From Candidatus Altiarchaeota archaeon (GTDB lineage: Archaea > Altiarchaeota > Altiarchaeia > IMC4 > QMZM01), in assembly GCA_016931955.1 (NCBI GenBank), contig JAFGDV010000044.1:1-26459 (forward strand): a stretch of 26,459 nt of DNA, in the 5' to 3' direction. Below are positions 706 to 12,120 of this stretch, piece by piece. The notes under the pieces were generated by a model. That model was not told the origin of the DNA, did no database searches, and worked only from the letters and a program-made list of their open reading frames with translations. Both the position numbers and the translations under genes were made by a program. Positions within the stretch are counted from its first letter, which is position 1, and each line of letters starts with the position of its first letter.

Positions 706-963
706 ATGACCGAACTGCTGACCTCAGACAAGGACATAAGCTGGTATCTAGAGGAGATCATATCCCATGCGGAAGAGATCCGAGAACTCTATGATCAAGG
801 AGATAAGATCTATCGGGGAAAGGAAACCTGCCGAGCACATGCTAGGGTGGAAGCATACGATCTGATAGTGCTTACAGCTGAGGCATTCCAGCTTCCAGGG
901 ATAATAGAGCAAGTACCTGGAGAAATACTAGAGAGATTCAACCAGAAGAGGCTAAAACAGTAG
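706..963 (+). CDS. Hypothetical helical protein
   Basis: 85-aa ORF 7 nt after the PqqD-like gene; no recognisable motif. Confidence 0.55.
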   Translation: MTELLTSDKDISWYLEEIISHAEEIRELYDQGDKIYRGKETCRAHARVEAYDLIVLTAEAFQLPGIIEQVPGEILERFNQKRLKQ

Positions 964-1446
964 CTCTTTGATGGGTTTCCTGTCGGAGGATCTCTTCTTC
1001 TCTACTGGATGGCCTAAGGCCACCACAGCCATGAGTTCGCAGGATTCTGGGGCATTCAGGATTCTTTTCACCGCATCTTTGTTCTTCAGGATTTCGCCAA
1101 GCCAGACCGCTCCCAGTTGACGGGAGTGAGCAGCTAAGAGCATGTTCTGTATGCATGCGCCTACAGCCAGCACATCCTTGGTTCGATCATAGCTTGCTGC
1201 TTTATCCAAGAAGACCGCAATACAAACAGGCGCACACTGGATGACTTCACCGTAGTGGGTCAGCTTGGATAGGCCCCCCTTCACCTTAGGATTCCTCACA
1301 ATAGAAAACCTCCAAGGCTGATTGTTTAATCCGGACGGAGCCCACCTACCAGCCTCCAGTATTTCCCTGACAGCTTCTTCAGCCACGTCCTCTGAGGTGA
1401 ACTCGCGAACGCTCCTCCTGCTCTTTATTAGGTCCAGCACGTCCAT
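952..1446 (-). CDS. Nitroreductase family flavoprotein
   Basis: IKSRRSVREF, WAPSGLNNQPWRF, QNMLLAAHSRQLGAVWLG, ALGHP and RKP motifs. Confidence 0.93.
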   Translation of the reverse strand: MDVLDLIKSRRSVREFTSEDVAEEAVREILEAGRWAPSGLNNQPWRFSIVRNPKVKGGLSKLTHYGEVIQCAPVCIAVFLDKAASYDRTKDVLAVGACIQNMLLAAHSRQLGAVWLGEILKNKDAVKRILNAPESCELMAVVALGHPVEKKRSSDRKPIKELLF

Positions 1447-1484: not shown

Positions 1485-3641
1485 ATGAGGAAAAACCCGA
1501 CGATACCGCTGCTGCTGATAGGCTTCGTCTCAGTCATAGGGCAGACCCTCCTCATGAGGGAGTTCATAGTAGTCTTCCAAGGAAATGAACTAACCCTCGG
1601 CTTAATACTTGGAAACTGGCTTCTACTGACGGCCATCGGAAGCTACATGGGGGGTATTTTGTCGGAGAAATACGATTTAAAAGAGAGGGACTTCGCAGTT
1701 TTGCAAGTAATCGCCGCCATCATCCTACCGGCTCAGATATTCCTCACCAGGGTCACAAGAAACCTCTTAGGCGTAGGCCAGGGCGAACTCCTCGGATTAG
1801 GGCAGATCCTCGGCTCAACATTCCTGATACTGGCACCCATTTGCATAATACTCGGCTTCCAGTTCTCCCTCGGCTGCAGGATCTACTCCAGAGAAAAAAA
1901 TGTGGAGAACATAGGCAAAGTCTACGTCCTAGAGTCAGCAGGTTCCTTGATCGGGGGGGTATTGTTCAGCTACCTGCTAGTAGGATACTTGAGCGCATTC
2001 CAGACCGCTTTCCTGGTGGCGATTCTGGCTTTGACTGCAGCTCACCAATTGCTCGAGAAAACAGAGAGATGGAGGCTGGGAGTCTACCTTTTCCTAGTCA
2101 CCTTGCTGCTTTGCTTCATGAACGCCTCCAGCCTGGAAAAACTATCCCACAACCTGCAATGGGGCGCCGACTTCATAAGCTCGGAAGACTCAATCTACGG
2201 CAACATAGCAGTACTGGAACGAAGTGGACAATACTCTGTCTACGAAAACGGTCTACTGCTTTACTCTACCGGAGACATAGAAAAAAATGAAGAAATCCAT
2301 TTCACGATGCTCGAGCATCCGAGCCCAGAGAAGGTCCTGTTGGTGGGTGGAGGCGCCGGGGGCGCATTAAAGGAGATACTAAAGCATCCCATAGAAGAGG
2401 TAGTTTACGTTGAACTGGATTCAATGATCCTTGAGGTTTCGAGGAAGTATATACCAGAGAAAGATCTCACTGCCTTGGATGATCCTCGAGTTATGGAGGT
2501 CATGGGTGATGGCAGGTTGCTCATCAAAGAAAGCAAAAACGTTTATGACGTGGTCATAGTGAGCCTCCCAGAGCCAAGCACCGCCCAGTTGAACAGGTTC
2601 TATACCCAAGAATTCTTCCAGGAGGTGGAGAGCATATTGAGCGATGATGGGATAGTGTCCATAACAATCCCCTCATCTGAAAGCTATGTTGGGAGGGAGG
2701 AGGGGATCCTTGGTGGAAGCATATACAAGACAATAAATACTGTTTTCCCGGAGGTGATCATTATCCCCGGGGAGAGAAGCATCATCCTCGCCTCAAAGGA
2801 TATTGGGGTGCTGACCTATGATCCAAGGACATTAAACAATAGAATGGAAGATAGGGGTGTTAAGACTGTCTTCCTCCATGAGCCCTACATAGGATACACG
2901 CTTTCAAGCGACCGGATAAACCACACCCTAAGTTCAATTAGTGATGATTCAAACAACGTAAACACGGACCTCAGACCAGTAGGCTACTACTATTACATGC
3001 TCCTCTGGAGTTCATTAACCGATGAAACGCCCATAACCTATGGGTGGGCTCTGATTACTGCATCCGCCATTATTCTTCTGATCCTTCTAAGGCACTCAAG
3101 GAGTCCAGTTATTCCACTAGCAACCCTCGTCGTAGGGCTTATAGGGATGACCCATGAAGTAATAATGCTCTTAGCATATCAGGCGTTGTACGGTTACGTC
3201 TATCATAAGATAGCCCTCATAATAGCTGCTTTTATGGGCGGCTTAGCCGTCGGGGCATTCTCCATGAACCAGATGACAGACAGGGTAAACAAAAGACTGT
3301 TTGCTGGGATACTGTTTTCAATGACCGCATACACGCTGCTACTGCCCACGATTCTGAAAGCGGCTGCTGTGTTTCCATCCGATTTTCTGTTCTCCCTGCT
3401 CGCAGCCGCCTCAGGTTTCCTTGTCGGCTTAGGATTCCCGTTAGCGAGTAAACTCTACCACCTAGAGGATAAAGGGATAACGGAGACTGCTGGAACAATC
3501 TATGCTTCAGACCTCTTTGGAGCATTCATGGGCACGATTCTCTCAAGCGCAATCCTGATACCGCTGATGGGGATAACGAACGTATGCATCTTATTGGCTG
3601 CTCTTAGTTTCATAGCTCTTACGATGGTCCTTATCGGGTGA
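1485..3641 (+). CDS. Fused MFS-like membrane protein / spermidine-synthase-like SAM-binding domain
   Basis: About 7 N-terminal and 7 C-terminal TM segments flank a class I SAM-binding fold (VLLVGGGAGG, VYVELD, GDGR, YDVVIV, NRFYTQEFF, NTDLRP). Confidence 0.85.
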   Translation: MRKNPTIPLLLIGFVSVIGQTLLMREFIVVFQGNELTLGLILGNWLLLTAIGSYMGGILSEKYDLKERDFAVLQVIAAIILPAQIFLTRVTRNLLGVGQGELLGLGQILGSTFLILAPICIILGFQFSLGCRIYSREKNVENIGKVYVLESAGSLIGGVLFSYLLVGYLSAFQTAFLVAILALTAAHQLLEKTERWRLGVYLFLVTLLLCFMNASSLEKLSHNLQWGADFISSEDSIYGNIAVLERSGQYSVYENGLLLYSTGDIEKNEEIHFTMLEHPSPEKVLLVGGGAGGALKEILKHPIEEVVYVELDSMILEVSRKYIPEKDLTALDDPRVMEVMGDGRLLIKESKNVYDVVIVSLPEPSTAQLNRFYTQEFFQEVESILSDDGIVSITIPSSESYVGREEGILGGSIYKTINTVFPEVIIIPGERSIILASKDIGVLTYDPRTLNNRMEDRGVKTVFLHEPYIGYTLSSDRINHTLSSISDDSNNVNTDLRPVGYYYYMLLWSSLTDETPITYGWALITASAIILLILLRHSRSPVIPLATLVVGLIGMTHEVIMLLAYQALYGYVYHKIALIIAAFMGGLAVGAFSMNQMTDRVNKRLFAGILFSMTAYTLLLPTILKAAAVFPSDFLFSLLAAASGFLVGLGFPLASKLYHLEDKGITETAGTIYASDLFGAFMGTILSSAILIPLMGITNVCILLAALSFIALTMVLIG

Positions 3642-4965
3642 ACTTTATAGGCTTCGTTCCAATCTTCCGGATCAATCCATCATCGACCATCCTACCCAAC
3701 GTGTTCCTCAGATGGTACTCTGAGATGCTGAACTCATTTTTCAGCTGGGACACTGTCTTCGGTTCTCTCATCTCCTTCAACAATGCGTTTTCTATATAGG
3801 CCTTAGACAGCTTCTTCAGGATTGGTATCCTAATTCCAGACCTCTTCTCCAGTATCCGAAGGCGGCCTATGAGGGCCTGCCAACGGAAATTCGGATCCCT
3901 CTGCTGTTTCACGTATTCCAAAAAAAGCATGTCCCAGCAAAGCTTCTCTTCCTTGAGTATCTTCTCACAATCCACGATAACGCAGGGCTCACTTGAAAGA
4001 GACTTGGACAGAAAGGTATTCTCAGGCGAATAATAGTAGGTCGTCTTTTCTTCTCTTGATTTGGATTCACCCACGGATTCCATGATCTGTGACTGAATGT
4101 TCAGCCAGGGATCAACGACGTCAAAGTGCAGAGCCAGCTCGTCTACGCTAAACAGATCCATCCTGTGATCGTTTTTTACATAAAACTCACAGACCTTAGA
4201 TAGCATCTCTTCACCTTCAGCGCACTTTAGAGAATGGATGAATATCTCCTCAATCATCAGTTCCTTTGGGGGTACATAGTAGTAGGAGAACTCCGATGAA
4301 TAATCCACATCAAACTCATTAAACCTTGAAAATGCAGTCAATGAACCATTAACTGAATTCTTCGTCTTCAGCAGCTTTCCCTCAGGCGAAGACCATACCT
4401 GAAAAGTCTTGGACATACTCTCAGACAAGTCTTTAATAGTCTTTAAAAATCCTATGAGGCTCCATCTGCCCTCTTTTAACCTGAAAAGCCCATGTTTCTG
4501 GTCCACTAAAGGCCTCAGCTCTTTGAGGTACTTGTAGACGGATGGGGGGGATATATGGCATTCCACGGCAATCTGGTCTATGCTCCGCCAGTCAAGAAGG
4601 GACTGCAATACCAACAACCGTTCTCCGACAATTGACTCAAGACTAAAATCCTCATGAAGCAAGTGGTGAAGATAATCAGCAATGTCGTTCTCCTTCAATT
4701 TAACAGTATTATTCTCCCCCCCTACAAGGGAAAACTCCTTCAGCTTTCTTATCGATAGGTATATTGAAACCCTTGAACGCTGTGTTTCCTCCCTCAACTC
4801 CTTCAGGCTTTTTCCTCCTTTCACCAAAAGCCTCTGGAGGATAAGGACATCAGTATTATTAAGGATCAGACTCTTAGGCTTCTCGTATTCTTTCGGCTTC
4901 TCATCCCTTTCCCTCCTCTTCTCGACAGCTTCCTTAAGTATGCTCCAGTCACTCAAAGATTCCAT
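3631..4965 (-). CDS. Multi winged-HTH protein resembling archaeal HTH / DUF6036 nucleotidyltransferase-associated regulators, with the NTase core apparently absent
   Basis: Three wHTH-like segments (SLKELREETQRSRVSIYLSIRKL; SIDQIAVECHISPPSVYKYLKEL; TVSQLKNEFSISEYHLRNTLGRMVDDGLI) and a central LTAFSRF...YYYVPPKELMIEEIFIHSL segment. Start ATG 4965 or GTG 4980. Confidence 0.6.
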   Translation of the reverse strand: MESLSDWSILKEAVEKRRERDEKPKEYEKPKSLILNNTDVLILQRLLVKGGKSLKELREETQRSRVSIYLSIRKLKEFSLVGGENNTVKLKENDIADYLHHLLHEDFSLESIVGERLLVLQSLLDWRSIDQIAVECHISPPSVYKYLKELRPLVDQKHGLFRLKEGRWSLIGFLKTIKDLSESMSKTFQVWSSPEGKLLKTKNSVNGSLTAFSRFNEFDVDYSSEFSYYYVPPKELMIEEIFIHSLKCAEGEEMLSKVCEFYVKNDHRMDLFSVDELALHFDVVDPWLNIQSQIMESVGESKSREEKTTYYYSPENTFLSKSLSSEPCVIVDCEKILKEEKLCWDMLFLEYVKQQRDPNFRWQALIGRLRILEKRSGIRIPILKKLSKAYIENALLKEMREPKTVSQLKNEFSISEYHLRNTLGRMVDDGLIRKIGTKPIKFTR

Positions 4966-4987
4966 CTTACTCAAGCTCACAAAGCCA

Positions 4988-6481
4988 TTATCTGAAATCG
5001 CTCTCTTTAAATGCGATAACCTTGTATCTGTAGATCTTCACATCAGGCTTCCTCCAGCAGTCGCTTGGAAGAAAGGCCTTATTACAGAGGCTGGACAGAA
5101 AATCCTCCTTTTCAGGAATCTGCTCCCAGACCTGTGGGAGATAGGTTGCACCCCTGCCTTTGTAGTCCAAGATTATACCGTCAACACCTGGTTGAATCCT
5201 CTCAAGATATTCCTCAGGTGAATCGGCGGTTATCAATTCAGGTAACGTGAGAACTGAGACCTCTATTTCTATATCGTCGAGTTCATTAGCAGTCACCGGC
5301 GAGAACCGAGGATCATTGAATGCCGCGTTTATGGCGTTATCCCTCACGTCCAAGTACAGCGGCTGGATGGGCTCAAGGTGACCGATGCAACCCCTAAGCT
5401 GGCCGTTCTTCTCCAGGGTTACGAAGACGCCCTTTTTTTCCCTCAACTTGGGGTCGTCTGTCTTCGGCTCAAATTTCTTCCCCTCCCCAACATAGAGCTC
5501 TACTGTATCCCTAGCCACCTCTAATAGATACTTTTTTTGTTTTTCACTCAATTCTTCTCCAGGTTTTTCTTCGCCTGAGTAGAAGGCTATTGAAGCATAT
5601 CCTACAACGCCGGATCTGTCACCTGTCACATCACCGGAGTTCATATACTTCAGCAACTTAGTAGACCAGTTAAGCTTCTCCGCGATCTCCATCGTCACGA
5701 GAACGGGAAAGTAACCACACATCTCACACCCCTCAGCCTTAGCATCATCTAAGGCCACGATGGATTCAACGCAGTAATTATCCAACGTTAAGGCTTCGTT
5801 GTAGGGGTGATAATGTGATAAGTCCGTGCTTGCAACGATAAGAGTTCTCTCATCCAAGTGTTTTATGATCAGATCAGAGAATTCATCGATTTCATCCCGA
5901 GACATTCTACCCACTATTACTGGAACAATCTCAAATTCCTTCAGGGAATACTGCAGAAAAGGTATCTCTATCTCGGCAGAATGCTCTTTAGAGTGTGCAT
6001 CCGGTATCGTCGAAATCAGCTTGGATTCCTCCCTGAGTTTCTTCGCCAAGGAGGATATCTTGACCTCCCCAAGGGGGGTCTTATAGTGGGTGTAATTGGA
6101 TATAGACACACCATCCAACGGATAATGATGTGACGGCGCAAGTATGATGACTGTGTCATAATCCCCGCCTTCGATCTGTTTGAAGGCGTGGGCTGCTACC
6201 TGGCCAGAATATGCGTAGCCCGCATGGGGGACAACAAGCGCCTTTATCCTCCCAAGCTCCTGCTTCTCGGCCTTAGAGAAGAAGCCCTCTAACTGCCTTG
6301 AAAGCGCATCCTTTGATTCGGGATACCAGCTGCCAGCTATCACAGACTCGCGAACGTATTTTTTTTCAGAGGTCATGTTGCCACCCCCCTCCTCTGGCAG
6401 AGTAGTGCACCCAACCAGGAATATTAAAGATATGGCATAGAACAATAAAATACAATCCCTTATTCTAACCCCAGAATCCAT
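4988..6481 (-). CDS. amrB/amrA: AmmeMemoRadiSam protein B (MEMO1) - protein A (AMMECR1) fusion with putative lipoprotein signal
   Basis: MEMO1 motifs AGSWYP, PHAGY, EHSAE, STDLSHY, MCG, NSGD, VVGY; AMMECR1 motifs GVFVT, LRGCIG, DPRF, ATYLPQV. N-terminal RIR + hydrophobic stretch + LVG-C. Start 6481 overlaps the amrS end; alternative start at 6376. Confidence 0.92.
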   Translation of the reverse strand: MDSGVRIRDCILLFYAISLIFLVGCTTLPEEGGGNMTSEKKYVRESVIAGSWYPESKDALSRQLEGFFSKAEKQELGRIKALVVPHAGYAYSGQVAAHAFKQIEGGDYDTVIILAPSHHYPLDGVSISNYTHYKTPLGEVKISSLAKKLREESKLISTIPDAHSKEHSAEIEIPFLQYSLKEFEIVPVIVGRMSRDEIDEFSDLIIKHLDERTLIVASTDLSHYHPYNEALTLDNYCVESIVALDDAKAEGCEMCGYFPVLVTMEIAEKLNWSTKLLKYMNSGDVTGDRSGVVGYASIAFYSGEEKPGEELSEKQKKYLLEVARDTVELYVGEGKKFEPKTDDPKLREKKGVFVTLEKNGQLRGCIGHLEPIQPLYLDVRDNAINAAFNDPRFSPVTANELDDIEIEVSVLTLPELITADSPEEYLERIQPGVDGIILDYKGRGATYLPQVWEQIPEKEDFLSSLCNKAFLPSDCWRKPDVKIYRYKVIAFKESDFR

Positions 6482-7598
6482 GAATACCTTCCCCGCAATT
6501 TTTACATCTTCCATCTTCTATCCTGTTTTCTACTACATAGAAGCCCTGCCTCTCAATCAATAAGTTCTTACACGAAGGACAATAGGTGCTCTCAAAGCCC
6601 AATCCAGGGAGGTTGCCGACATAGACGTATCTTAAGCCCGAATCTAAAGCCATATTCCTCGCGGTCTTGAGGGTCTCTGCGGGGGTGGGAGCTAGATTGC
6701 TGAGCTTGTAGGCAGGCCTGAACCTCAGGAAATGCACTGGGTGATTAACTCCGATGTTGTCTACGACCCAGTCCACGAAGGCCTTTATCTGCTCGTAATC
6801 GTCGCTCCACCCCGGTATCACCAGGTATGTGAGCTCGAACCACTTATTTTCCTCCTTCAGGACAATGATCGAGTCAAGGATAGGCTGCAGACTCCCCTCA
6901 GTGAGGCTCCTGTAGACCCTATTAGAGAAACCCTTCAGGTTCACATTACCTGCGTCAAGAAACCTGCAGAGCCCCTTCAGGGGTTCTGGATTAATATACC
7001 CGCAGCTGACTATCACGTTCTTTATGCCTTCCTCCTTGGCGAGCTTCGCCGTATCGAGCATGTATTCATAGAATACTGTCGGCTCAGTATAGGTATAAGC
7101 TATTGACCTGGCATTGTATCTCTTCGCGTAAGCAACCACATCCTCCGGCGACAGGTCAAGGTTCTGGGTTTCATCAGGCTTCGCCTGGGATATCTGCCAG
7201 TTCTGACAGTACTTGCACCGCAGACAGCAGCCTGCCGTCGCGATTGAAAAAGCATTTGTTGAAGGCAAGAAATGAAATAACGGTTTTTTCTCTATTGGGT
7301 CCAGATGAGCAGCACAAGGGTTCCCGTAGCCGAGAGTATATAGTTTTCCACCCTTGTTCATCCTTACGCCGCATAAACCCCTCCCGTTATCAGCTATAAC
7401 GCATCTATTAGGGCATAAAGCACATCTCACAATGTTATCGCCCAAGCCTTCATAGAAAAGAGCCTCCCTGAGGGAAACCTCGGGCAGTGCAGTACTCGCC
7501 TGCTTCAATAGATAGTCTGCGGCAATAACCGACACACCTAATCCAGCCCCCACTACGGCAGCCTTCTTGATGAATTCTCTTCGGGTTATACCCTCCAT
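6465..7598 (-). CDS. amrS: AmmeMemoRadiSam radical SAM enzyme with twin-arginine signal
   Basis: CALCPNRC, GLCGVR, DPIEKKPLFHF, CxxxCxxC (CCLRCKYCQNWQISQ), AYTYTEP, C-terminal CPSC...CKNC. N-terminus ITRREFIKK followed by a hydrophobic region. Confidence 0.95.
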   Translation of the reverse strand: MEGITRREFIKKAAVVGAGLGVSVIAADYLLKQASTALPEVSLREALFYEGLGDNIVRCALCPNRCVIADNGRGLCGVRMNKGGKLYTLGYGNPCAAHLDPIEKKPLFHFLPSTNAFSIATAGCCLRCKYCQNWQISQAKPDETQNLDLSPEDVVAYAKRYNARSIAYTYTEPTVFYEYMLDTAKLAKEEGIKNVIVSCGYINPEPLKGLCRFLDAGNVNLKGFSNRVYRSLTEGSLQPILDSIIVLKEENKWFELTYLVIPGWSDDYEQIKAFVDWVVDNIGVNHPVHFLRFRPAYKLSNLAPTPAETLKTARNMALDSGLRYVYVGNLPGLGFESTYCPSCKNLLIERQGFYVVENRIEDGRCKNCGEGIHGFWG

Positions 7599-7601
7599 TC
7601 T

Positions 7602-7760
7602 CTAACCTGCCAGATCATCATCCTCTAAAAGGTCGTCTACTGCTTTCTTGAATTCATTGACGGCTTCCGCAAGAGACCTCGCCAATTCCGGCAATTTCTC
7701 CGGACCGAATAGGATTACGGCCATGATAAATATCAAAAGCAGCTCTAGTGTTCCTATCAT
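7602..7760 (-). CDS. tatA: TatA/TatB-family translocase subunit (not in ORF track)
   Basis: Hand translation: MIGTLELLLIFIMAVILFGPEKLPELARSLAEAVNEFKKAVDDLLEDDDLAG (52 aa), with the FGPEKLP signature; ATGA overlap with the tatC stop. Confidence 0.92.
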   Translation of the reverse strand: MIGTLELLLIFIMAVILFGPEKLPELARSLAEAVNEFKKAVDDLLEDDDLAG

Positions 7761-8464
7761 CTACGCCCACCCATAATCCAAGATATGAGGATGCTTACCT
7801 CGTACAATAATATTATGGGAACAGCCACTAATATCTGGGTGAACACCGAAGGATCAGTTATCACAGCAGCCACTATGAAGGCCCCAAGGACCACATACCT
7901 CCTCCTAGAACTCAAGACCATATGATCCACCAACCCCAGCCTTGATAGTACAGCAACGATCAGAGGCAGCTGAAAGATTAAGCCGAATAAAACAACCAAG
8001 GTGATGGCAAAACTGAAGGCTTGGTTGAGGCTGAACATGGGAAGCGCTACAGGATATGAAACATTTATGAGAAAGTTCATTGTCACGGGCAGAAGGAGCC
8101 AGTAAGCGAAGACATTGCCTGCTAGAAACAACAGAGTGGATGAGATCAACAACGTCAATGTGAGGGTTTTTTCCCTCCCCAAGAATGCTGGCGCCACAAA
8201 AGACCAGAACTGATAGACCAAAACAGGAAAACTGAAGACTAAACCCAATAGCAGTGAAACCTTCAACTCAACCATCAACGCTTCTTGGGGAGAAATCACT
8301 ATCAAGAACACATTTCCCATCAGATCCGCTCTAACCCTCTCCAATAGAAAAGGGACCACCGGAAAGGAGACAATGGATGCAAAAACGAATGCAAAAAATG
8401 ACACCAGAAACCTCTTCCGCAGTTCTCGCAGATGCCCGAAGACTGGCATTTTCTCCTGCTTCAC
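7757..8464 (-). CDS. tatC: Twin-arginine translocase subunit TatC
   Basis: HLRELRKR, YQFWSFVAPA, FGLIFQLP, RRY, AAVIT-DP and LLYE motifs; 6 TM. Confidence 0.96.
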   Translation of the reverse strand: MKQEKMPVFGHLRELRKRFLVSFFAFVFASIVSFPVVPFLLERVRADLMGNVFLIVISPQEALMVELKVSLLLGLVFSFPVLVYQFWSFVAPAFLGREKTLTLTLLISSTLLFLAGNVFAYWLLLPVTMNFLINVSYPVALPMFSLNQAFSFAITLVVLFGLIFQLPLIVAVLSRLGLVDHMVLSSRRRYVVLGAFIVAAVITDPSVFTQILVAVPIILLYEVSILISWIMGGRR

Positions 8465-8613
8465 TTTCCAGCTTCCTTCTCAGCCTTCTTTAAACCCTTC
8501 CTAAACTCTGCGACGGCTTCTCCGAGAGAGCGGGCAAGCTCGGGAAGACGCTTGCTCCCGAACAATAACAACAATATTAACAGTATTACGAGAATCTCAG
8601 TCCAACCAATCAT
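8461..8613 (-). CDS. tatA: Twin-arginine translocase subunit TatA
   Basis: MIGWTEILVILLILLLLFGSKRLPELARSLGEAVAEFRKG; GTGA overlap with the tatC start. Confidence 0.95.
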   Translation of the reverse strand: MIGWTEILVILLILLLLFGSKRLPELARSLGEAVAEFRKGLKKAEKEAGK

Positions 8614-11337: not shown

Positions 11338-12120
11338 CTAAGCAACAGGAACCATCATCGACTCCATATCCACGGCGTTTTCTGCCTCGCTTGGGAGAAC
11401 AATATCCACTGGCTTATTGTAGTCGCTGAATGTCATGGTCATATTCATATCCAACGTGGAGCCTTCCTCTTCCATATTCATGTACATGAACAACTTCTTA
11501 ACAAGAAAAGTGTCCTTCGACACCCACTCCCTTATCTCCGCTTCCTTGATGCTACCCAAGTCCTCCGCACTCACCATTGACGTGGAACCCATCTGTTTAC
11601 CTAAAACATCCATCATCTTCTCCAAGTCAACGTCAACCTTCAATACATAGCAGTTCTCTCCGTCCAGTTTCTCATCGCTGAGAAGTTCAACCTGAGTGTA
11701 CATCAGTTCCCCAGACAGTCCAGCATAGTCCTGCTGCTCCCAAGTATCAGCCGATGTCTTGTTCTTAACCCAGCCAAAAAAGGGCATTTTCATGTATTGG
11801 ATGTCATCTATTATATACTGCTCCATGTCCATGCTCATACCCATCATAGACATCGACATATCCATGAACATCTTCTTGTTTTTCATATCCACCTTACCAT
11901 TTCCATCCATGCTTATCTCCGCCTCGCTTACTCCCATATCCATCTCCCCACCTACCATGAGCATGCTGATATCCGTGCTGAAAGAGTATGTTTCAACATT
12001 CTCCATAGCTTCAACAGCTCTGTCTCTGACCTGCTCCGCTGTAAGCTTTTCCTCTGTAGTGCACCCCAGAGAAAGCAGGAGAAAACCTATGGCAACAGCC
12101 GCCAGTAATCTTTTGTCCAT
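11338..12120 (-). CDS. Met-rich lipoprotein, LolA/LppX-like (DUF6612-like)
   Basis: MDKR + hydrophobic stretch + SLG-C lipobox; alternating beta-strand pattern; DGENCYVL, WVSKDTFLV, FSDYNKPVDIVLPSEA. GAGGGG lies upstream of ATG 12120. Confidence 0.72.
   Translation of the reverse strand: MDKRLLAAVAIGFLLLSLGCTTEEKLTAEQVRDRAVEAMENVETYSFSTDISMLMVGGEMDMGVSEAEISMDGNGKVDMKNKKMFMDMSMSMMGMSMDMEQYIIDDIQYMKMPFFGWVKNKTSADTWEQQDYAGLSGELMYTQVELLSDEKLDGENCYVLKVDVDLEKMMDVLGKQMGSTSMVSAEDLGSIKEAEIREWVSKDTFLVKKLFMYMNMEEEGSTLDMNMTMTFSDYNKPVDIVLPSEAENAVDMESMMVPVA

Follow-up and report, generated by a model that had tools for sequence, protein, structure and literature searches.

The window analysed here is a 26,459 nt contig (JAFGDV010000044.1) of a Candidatus Altiarchaeota archaeon, one of the 46 contigs (C18) of a 1.55 Mb genome that is 92% complete and is designated G000 below. 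Among its genes are those for topoisomerase VI and a CCA-adding enzyme of archaeal type (TIGR03671, 414.5 bits), which mark the organism as an archaeon. Between positions 1485 and 8652, the list of open reading frames (ORFs) and two profile libraries give the same seven genes, at the same positions, as an earlier note made from the letters alone (Table 1). On the minus strand, genes for the twin-arginine translocation (Tat) system are followed by those for the radical S-adenosylmethionine (SAM) enzyme AmrS, a fusion of AmrB (Memo) and AmrA (AMMECR1), here called AmrBA, and a helix-turn-helix (HTH) protein, in the order tatA-tatC-tatA-amrS-amrBA-HTH. Convergent to them is a gene for a membrane protein that contains a spermidine synthase (SpeE)-like domain. 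The locus is probably a variant of the AmmeMemoRadiSam system that acts on the outer face of the cytoplasmic membrane, with the membrane protein as a fourth component, a reading for which all of the evidence is computational.

Table 1. Genes of the AmmeMemoRadiSam-type locus, with positions in the window and profile matches.
Feature	Position	Strand	Evidence
Membrane protein, 718 aa, SpeE-like domain within	1485..3641	+	PF01564 106.3 bits; NF037959 59 bits (cut-off 40)
HTH protein, 449 aa, several winged-helix modules (TrmB/Lrs14-like)	3631..4980	-	Weak Pfam and NCBIfam HTH matches
AmrB (Memo)-AmrA (AMMECR1) fusion	4988..6514	-	TIGR04336 273.5 bits; TIGR04335 210.1 bits
AmrS radical SAM enzyme, twin-arginine signal	6465..7598	-	TIGR04337 357.8 bits (cut-off 220); TIGR01409 22.4 bits (cut-off 16.7)
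TatA-type subunit, 52 aa	7602..7760	-	PF02416 58.2 bits
TatC	7757..8464	-	PF00902 190.6 bits
TatA-type subunit	8461..8613/8652	-	PF02416 63.5 bits; TIGR01411 69.1 bits

The minus-strand genes are tightly packed, and the junctions agree with those reported earlier: GTGA between the first tatA and tatC, ATGA between tatC and the second tatA, a 3 nt spacer before amrS, and an overlap of amrS and amrBA that measures 17 nt from the second methionine of AmrBA or 50 nt from the first. A 7 nt gap separates amrBA from the HTH gene. The first TatA may start at a TTG (8652) or, more likely, at an ATG (8613).

AmrS begins with MEGITRREFIKK, followed by a hydrophobic stretch. The twin-arginine motif TRREFIK, which the earlier note had already paired with a hydrophobic region, occupies residues 5–11 and is followed by a further lysine (TRREFIKK), the hydrophobic segment covers residues 9–31, and the signal passes the TIGR01409 cut-off. 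The radical SAM motif CX3CX2C (C124/C128/C131) is invariant in 25 aligned homologues, in which four-cysteine groups on both sides of it are also conserved. An N-terminal extension is present in all 120 of the best database relatives of AmrS; by a strict rule, which misses motifs starting beyond residue 40 and K-R or R-K variants, 45 of these are Tat-type and nearly all others hydrophobic. Here and below, signal classes are those of in-house sequence rules corrected by eye.

AmrBA has a single N-terminal hydrophobic segment (residues 15–41), ending in the sequence LVGC (residues 33–36 of the long form), and a close relative, at locus L042, has LIGC. Lipoproteins carry the lipobox [LVI][ASTVI][GAS]C at the end of the signal, and by this motif AmrBA is a predicted lipoprotein, as had been proposed. 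In seven of seven related genomes, the AmrBA next to a Tat-type AmrS has, ahead of its Memo domain, a K/R-rich stretch and then a lipobox or hydrophobic anchor, with differing sequences; because the anchor is kept in all seven, the signal is judged real. An internal start at Met47, which has a GGAGG-like stretch upstream and would give a signal-less form, was rejected on the same ground. Among AmrBA proteins encoded beside a signal-bearing AmrS, 30 of 33 have a signal, often of the lipoprotein type, by the automatic rule; three that it missed show a hydrophobic signal by eye, and one AmrBA is cut by the contig end.

The membrane protein was modelled with AlphaFold2 using 36 homologues (predicted local distance difference test, pLDDT, 90.4; predicted TM-score, pTM, 0.90). 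The model consists of a bundle of transmembrane helices 1–6, helix 7, the SpeE-like domain (about residues 229–511), helix 8 and a second bundle, with six or seven helices after the domain. Matched against the spermidine synthase structures 1uir, 1inl, 3o4f and 6bq6, the domain reaches Foldseek target TM-scores (TMt) of 0.74–0.79, and its SpeE fold is complete, with the N-terminal beta domain included. When residues 1–226 were modelled alone (pLDDT 95.0), 48 of the 50 listed Foldseek matches were transporters of the major facilitator superfamily (MFS), all weak (E 0.016–0.14, query TM-score, TMq, ≤0.57); the full-length model returned SpeE matches only. The SAM-binding type of fold that had been recognized between two MFS-like halves is upheld by the model and by the PF01564 and NF037959 matches, the MFS likeness being that of the N-terminal half and weak. 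The N-terminus of MFS proteins is cytoplasmic, and since seven helices precede the SpeE-like domain, the domain should face outward. The distribution of positive charge agrees, with a family-averaged summed K+R of about 17 on the N-terminal side vs about 3 on the domain side.

Several features distinguish this domain from an aminopropyltransferase. It misses the cut-offs of NF002956 (193.5/472), NF002010 (117.2/260) and TIGR00417 (110.1/249.55), and in the alignment with the Thermotoga maritima enzyme (1inl), GGGDGG has become GGGAGG and DSTDP has become SLPEP (family consensus NLPxP). We take these changes to have cost the domain its catalytic acid, along with the residue responsible for the preference for decarboxylated SAM. 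D342 is invariant and E310 is present in at least 90% of the family, and these two residues presumably make the ribose and adenine contacts. The pattern of changed and retained residues points to a role in binding, or in an altered transfer reaction.

The SpeE-like domain (residues 225–515) was also co-folded with AmrS (residues 45–377), each with its own alignment, as a version of the AmrS–AmrBA–transporter modelling check that had been suggested. The score was 0.63 (runs 0.63, 0.61 and 0.64) and that of the best control 0.00; as a rough guide, since own alignments were used, 58 of 80 solved complexes and 2 of 110 mismatched pairs reach this value. The runs share at least 84% of contacts, with a partner pLDDT of at least 83, and the AmrS interface comprises residues 95–101, 132–136 (next to C124/C128/C131) and 170. 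The model supports the view that AmrS binds the outward SpeE-like domain.

On the genome, the convergent membrane-protein and HTH genes share 11 nt at their 3' ends (3631–3641). On its other side, 38 nt away and divergent from it, the membrane-protein gene is neighboured by a nitroreductase-family gene (952–1446, minus strand), the product of which is without a signal.

The same genes were sought in 41 genomes of the same order, G000 included, which belong to 23 genera and, being related, are not independent observations. A signal-less AmrS is found in nearly all of them, and a Tat-type AmrS in 14, with a patchy occurrence across the genera. tatC is present in 14/14 genomes with a Tat-type AmrS vs 3/27 of the others, and the full-length membrane protein in 12/14 vs 1/27. 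At the 13 Tat-type loci besides that of the window, two of which are contigs of about 3 kb, the membrane protein adjoins in nine, AmrBA in seven and tatC in six. None of these three was seen in the flanks of the 26 signal-less AmrS loci of the same genomes, which carry no membrane protein, AmrBA or tat gene. Two expectations of the earlier note were thus borne out: that signal-bearing amrS keeps company with signal-bearing amrBA and the membrane-protein gene when the signal-less paralogue does not, and that amrS with an RR signal is linked to tat genes, here in small archaeal genomes.

The signal-less paralogue has a different setting. It lies beside the gene for the CCA-adding enzyme in 21 of the 26 loci, so that the canonical AmrS of this order has a conserved RNA-type context. 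In G000 itself, the second AmrS lacks the N-terminal extension, is 50% identical to the first and is encoded on contig C26 (L138:10780–13125), where its gene and that of the CCA-adding enzyme abut at 11787/11788. The signal-bearing fusion is the only Memo gene detected in G000 at 92% completeness. A lone AMMECR1 gene lies on contig C41, which leaves the cytoplasmic AmrS with an AMMECR1 but without a Memo partner. The suggestion that the system has other than the nucleic-acid role often assumed for these families probably holds for the exported form; the canonical paralogue retains its RNA-type context, and for it the nucleic-acid idea is not refuted.

G000 has one tatC and two tatA genes, and all three lie inside this locus (tblastn and TatC profile). 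A count of other potential Tat substrates, as had been advised, was made by a loose scan of about 1585 crude ORFs, and gave 37 N-termini with RR and an uncharged stretch, among which only AmrS has the full [ST]RRxF[LI]K motif. Eight of the 36 other candidates, picked by eye as the most signal-like, were scanned against Pfam; none has a cofactor domain, and they comprise a solute-binding lipoprotein, a NosD-like beta-helix protein, a subtilase, an FG-GAP protein, a trypsin-like protease and three without a match. The Tat translocase of this organism seems to exist mainly for AmrS, and small archaeal genomes would keep the Tat machinery largely for the exported AmrS system.

To look beyond the order, one genome per species was scanned with an alignment of 25 signal-bearing AmrS, and the best 80 loci were kept. 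They include three archaeal lineages, Aenigmatarchaeota and Woesearchaeota among them, and bacteria of the Bacteroidota, Thermodesulfobacteriota, Omnitrophota, Ignavibacteriota, Planctomycetota, Calditrichota, Zixibacteria, Nitrospirota, Elusimicrobiota, Chlamydiota and others. AmrS is Tat-like in 55 loci, strongly hydrophobic (Sec-like) in 19 and without a signal in six, making 74 signal-bearing. For the neighbourhoods, all ORFs within 7 kb were clustered at 89 loci (77 of the 80, three Paludibacter-type loci being left out, plus 11 relatives and the window). The membrane protein is the commonest neighbour (51 loci), followed by AmrBA (44), and every other family occurs at no more than 13 loci: DsbD_2 proteins at 12, DUF362 and TatC at eight each, and NapH-like proteins (Fer4_5 with or without FMN_bind) at seven. 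In the remaining 38 loci, many on short contigs, no membrane protein is seen within 7 kb; of the 29 Tat-like loci that are flanked by 5 kb or more in both directions, 23 have the membrane protein and/or AmrBA. The adjacency recurs over more than ten phyla with changing gene orders, and the cluster is widespread rather than peculiar to the window.

Some groups depart from the usual pattern. In the Nitrospirota (L072, L096 and L122), AmrS starts at the first cysteine motif and has no signal, and AmrBA has a lipobox; the membrane protein adjoins in L072 and L122, L096 being a 4.3 kb contig, and both L096 and L122 also carry an FMN_bind/Fer4_5 protein. In the Paludibacteraceae and related Bacteroidales, all three loci encode an AmrS without a signal, and the membrane protein is missing from their flanks; AmrBA lacks a signal by rule in two of them, and the hydrophobic stretch of the third was read as lying upstream of the real start.

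Two further observations concern the signal and the partners of AmrS. About 23 of the 55 Tat-like AmrS, mostly from Bacteroidota, have K-R for R-R (SKREFIK, NKREFLK) with the rest of the motif intact, a natural, lineage-wide twin-arginine variant on one substrate family; such loci include L064, L068, L071, L073, L079, L081, L082, L085, L087, L091, L093, L095, L105, L106, L113, L116 and L126–L128. In eight loci (L055, L065, L104, L114, L117, L119, L123 and L125), a DUF362 protein of about 330 aa is encoded 9–170 nt upstream of amrS and in six of the eight has a Tat signal of its own. AmrBA is mostly unseen there (L055 has both), and the DUF362 protein may be an alternative partner.

Potential electron conduits are encoded beside amrS in several lineages. 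The 12 loci with a DsbD_2 membrane protein (L049, L051, L052, L054, L058, L063, L067, L069, L070, L089, L107 and L115) all have a hydrophobic-type AmrS, and every Sec-like AmrS with readable flanks adjoins a DsbD_2 protein bearing GPCxxxC. Fusions of DsbD_2, FMN_bind and Fer4_5 occur in three loci (L056, L059 and L112), and FMN_bind plus Fer4_5 in two loci. Within the order, a NapH-like Fer4_5 protein is encoded directly beside amrS in two genomes (G009 and G038). In known systems, Fer4_5, FMN_bind and DsbD-type domains carry electrons outward.

A quick maximum-likelihood tree was made of 119 AmrS cores, with the signals removed and drawn from the homologues described above rather than from canonical bacterial AmrS. 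A branch with 100% support in the Shimodaira–Hasegawa-like approximate likelihood ratio test (SH-aLRT) splits the 26 signal-less AmrS of the order from the other 93 rows, among which the archaeal Tat-type rows are scattered in several places between bacterial ones. The six signal-less rows of the 80-locus sample form two groups nested within signal-bearing rows, which points to secondary loss of the signal.

The HTH gene is the last of the minus-strand run, and only L042 and L046, from the two closest relatives, retain it after amrBA; its product is likely to be a local regulator.

These results are most simply explained by an outward-facing form of the AmmeMemoRadiSam system with a fourth, membrane component, and suggest the following scheme. 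AmrS would fold and gain its iron–sulfur (Fe-S) cluster in the cytoplasm and then be exported by the adjacent TatA/TatC, and the AmrB–AmrA fusion would be exported separately and tethered via a lipid or membrane anchor. The MFS-fold protein would display its adenosyl-binding, catalytically altered SpeE-like domain outside, where AmrS would dock, and as the fourth component it would most likely pass SAM (or a substrate) across the membrane to the exported AmrS. In other lineages, co-encoded DsbD_2 or NapH-like proteins would bring electrons, and a molecule of the membrane or envelope is the probable substrate. An extracytoplasmic location of the system is likely, and in line with the proposal that the catalytic parts sit outside and that the locus provides the export route for the Fe-S protein, it is favoured by the signals, the co-occurrence, the tatC pattern and the complex model. 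Of the roles considered for the fourth component, supplying SAM through its MFS part is the most attractive, but it is rated less likely than not. The scheme in its fullest form, in which the MFS protein exports SAM to Tat-type AmrS via the SpeE-like domain, NapH-like or DsbD_2 conduits re-reduce AmrS in many lineages, and the anchored Memo–AMMECR1 completes a modification of membrane lipid or envelope, is speculative and, taken whole, rather unlikely.

A number of points weigh against this scheme. Neither SAM nor a low-potential reductant is known to occur outside cells. The MFS likeness is weak, with a Pfam MFS_1 match, itself weak, in one of 36 family members and Foldseek E values of at least 0.016. 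The NapH-like gene is only loosely linked at the genome level (10/14 genomes with Tat-type AmrS vs 7/27 others), and in G000, at 92% completeness, there is no Fer4_5 match and the only DsbD_2 match, on a different contig, gives just a weak score as an ArsG-like permease; the electron source is therefore unaccounted for in this organism. The Sec-like N-termini of 19 loci do not sit easily with the export of a folded Fe-S enzyme, and the signal-less AmrS beside a lipoprotein AmrBA in Nitrospirota is not explained by a simple export model. Finally, the 80 loci are those that scored best against aligned signal-bearing AmrS, and the sample is biased towards relatives of the query.

The alternative that survives best, though it too is doubtful, keeps the system outside and denies the membrane protein a part in SAM supply. 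AmrS would be exported pre-loaded, with SAM regenerated or used for a single turnover, and the MFS/SpeE-like protein would transport or modify the substrate or take up adenosyl by-products. Lysine 2,3-aminomutase provides a precedent, as it uses SAM as a regenerated cofactor, and we know of no SAM exporter. The changed acidic motif of aminopropyl transfer, together with the retained E310 and D342, fits this account in suggesting binding or altered transfer, as do the 38 of 89 loci, many of them on short contigs, that show no membrane protein within 7 kb. The membrane protein is nevertheless the commonest neighbour of AmrS, its outer domain is predicted to dock on AmrS at a face that takes in residues adjoining the cluster motif, and the electron conduits next to AmrS elsewhere suggest repeated reduction and many turnovers.

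It is improbable that the N-termini are mere membrane anchors and that the catalytic domains remain in the cytoplasm, where they would act at the inner leaflet or on a soluble substrate near the membrane. Passage of an Fe-S enzyme through Sec would be unexpected, so the 19 Sec-like or anchor-like N-termini of AmrS in the sample would be easier to understand in this way, as would the three signal-less AmrS of Nitrospirota. Such an arrangement leaves unexplained the twin-arginine consensus in 55 of 80 loci, the presence and adjacency of tatC with Tat-type AmrS, the K/R-rich stretch that precedes the AmrBA anchor, and the lipoboxes. It also conflicts with the outward placing of the SpeE-like domain, which follows from the MFS fold, the seven preceding helices and the positive-inside count, and with the neighbouring conduits, which have FMN_bind domains and deliver electrons outward.

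Least probable of all is that the adjacency is incidental, the tat genes serving the cell generally and the membrane SpeE-like protein being a polyamine or lipid enzyme unconnected with the system: G003 and G006, the two nearest relatives, do have the membrane-protein gene on a contig other than that of amrS, three genomes have tatC without a detected Tat-type AmrS, and other RR-bearing surface proteins of G000 could be Tat substrates, but the adjacency holds over more than ten phyla despite varying gene order, the genome-level co-occurrence is strong, all 26 paralogue controls are negative, the docking model passes its controls, and where the Paludibacteraceae and related Bacteroidales have lost the AmrS signal (three loci) the membrane protein is absent from the flanks too.

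The locus can be compared with several known systems. It shares with the canonical AmmeMemoRadiSam trio (TIGR04335/04336/04337) the same families, well above cut-offs, adjacent genes and the cysteine motifs, and differs from it by the export signals, the fusion of AmrB and AmrA, the fourth, membrane component and the linked Tat genes. NapG/NapH, NosZ/NosR and the reductive dehalogenase RdhA with RdhC, in which membrane conduits feed an Fe-S redox enzyme exported by Tat, likewise combine a folded Fe-S protein and a twin-arginine signal and have a parallel in the Fer4_5, FMN_bind and DsbD-type neighbours of AmrS in other lineages; unlike NapG, NosZ and RdhA, the exported enzyme here would be a radical SAM enzyme, which needs SAM as well. 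By profile, the nearest characterised radical SAM relative is the pyruvate formate-lyase-activating enzyme, PFL-AE (TIGR02493), but AmrS, at 69.8 bits, is far below the cut-off of 231.75, differs by its additional cysteine groups and its export signal, and has no glycyl-radical enzyme nearby. With SpeE and its membrane-fused forms (NF037959, PRK03612) the membrane protein has in common the complete fold and a score that passes NF037959; unlike in SpeE, the acidic motif residues are replaced, and the domain is inserted, facing outward by prediction, between helices 7 and 8 of an MFS-like protein.

The abstract of Burroughs et al. (2019, J Biol Chem) reportedly links Memo systems to the modification of nucleotide bases and of aliphatic isoprenoids, and part of the membrane context described here may already be in print in that paper. 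Its 'Memo-Ammecr1 systems' are cited in PMC7159879. A 2007 paper on the RAGNYA fold predicts an RNA base modification for the system (PMC2034487). NapH-like and DsbD systems are discussed in PMC8238504, the searched passages of which make no mention of radical SAM, Memo or AMMECR1. Across the literature searched there were only passing mentions of AmmeMemoRadiSam, and neither an exported radical SAM enzyme nor this cluster was described.

Radical SAM enzymes are treated as strictly cytoplasmic, as they need SAM, a strong reductant and protection of an oxygen-sensitive cluster. A widespread and conserved exported form challenges this view. A membrane partner of its own accompanies it, dedicated electron conduits do so in some lineages, and it is linked to the Tat machinery where archaeal genomes are small. 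If the SAM-exporting version of the scheme were true, it would provide a SAM exporter and an extracytoplasmic radical SAM enzyme, each the first of its kind, and a handle on the function of Memo and AMMECR1, proteins that are conserved from archaea to humans and to our knowledge have no known biochemical function. A cultured carrier of the variant exists in Mangrovibacterium marinum DSM 28823 (L079). For at least one branch of the Memo/AMMECR1 family, the exported variant points to a substrate in the membrane or envelope.

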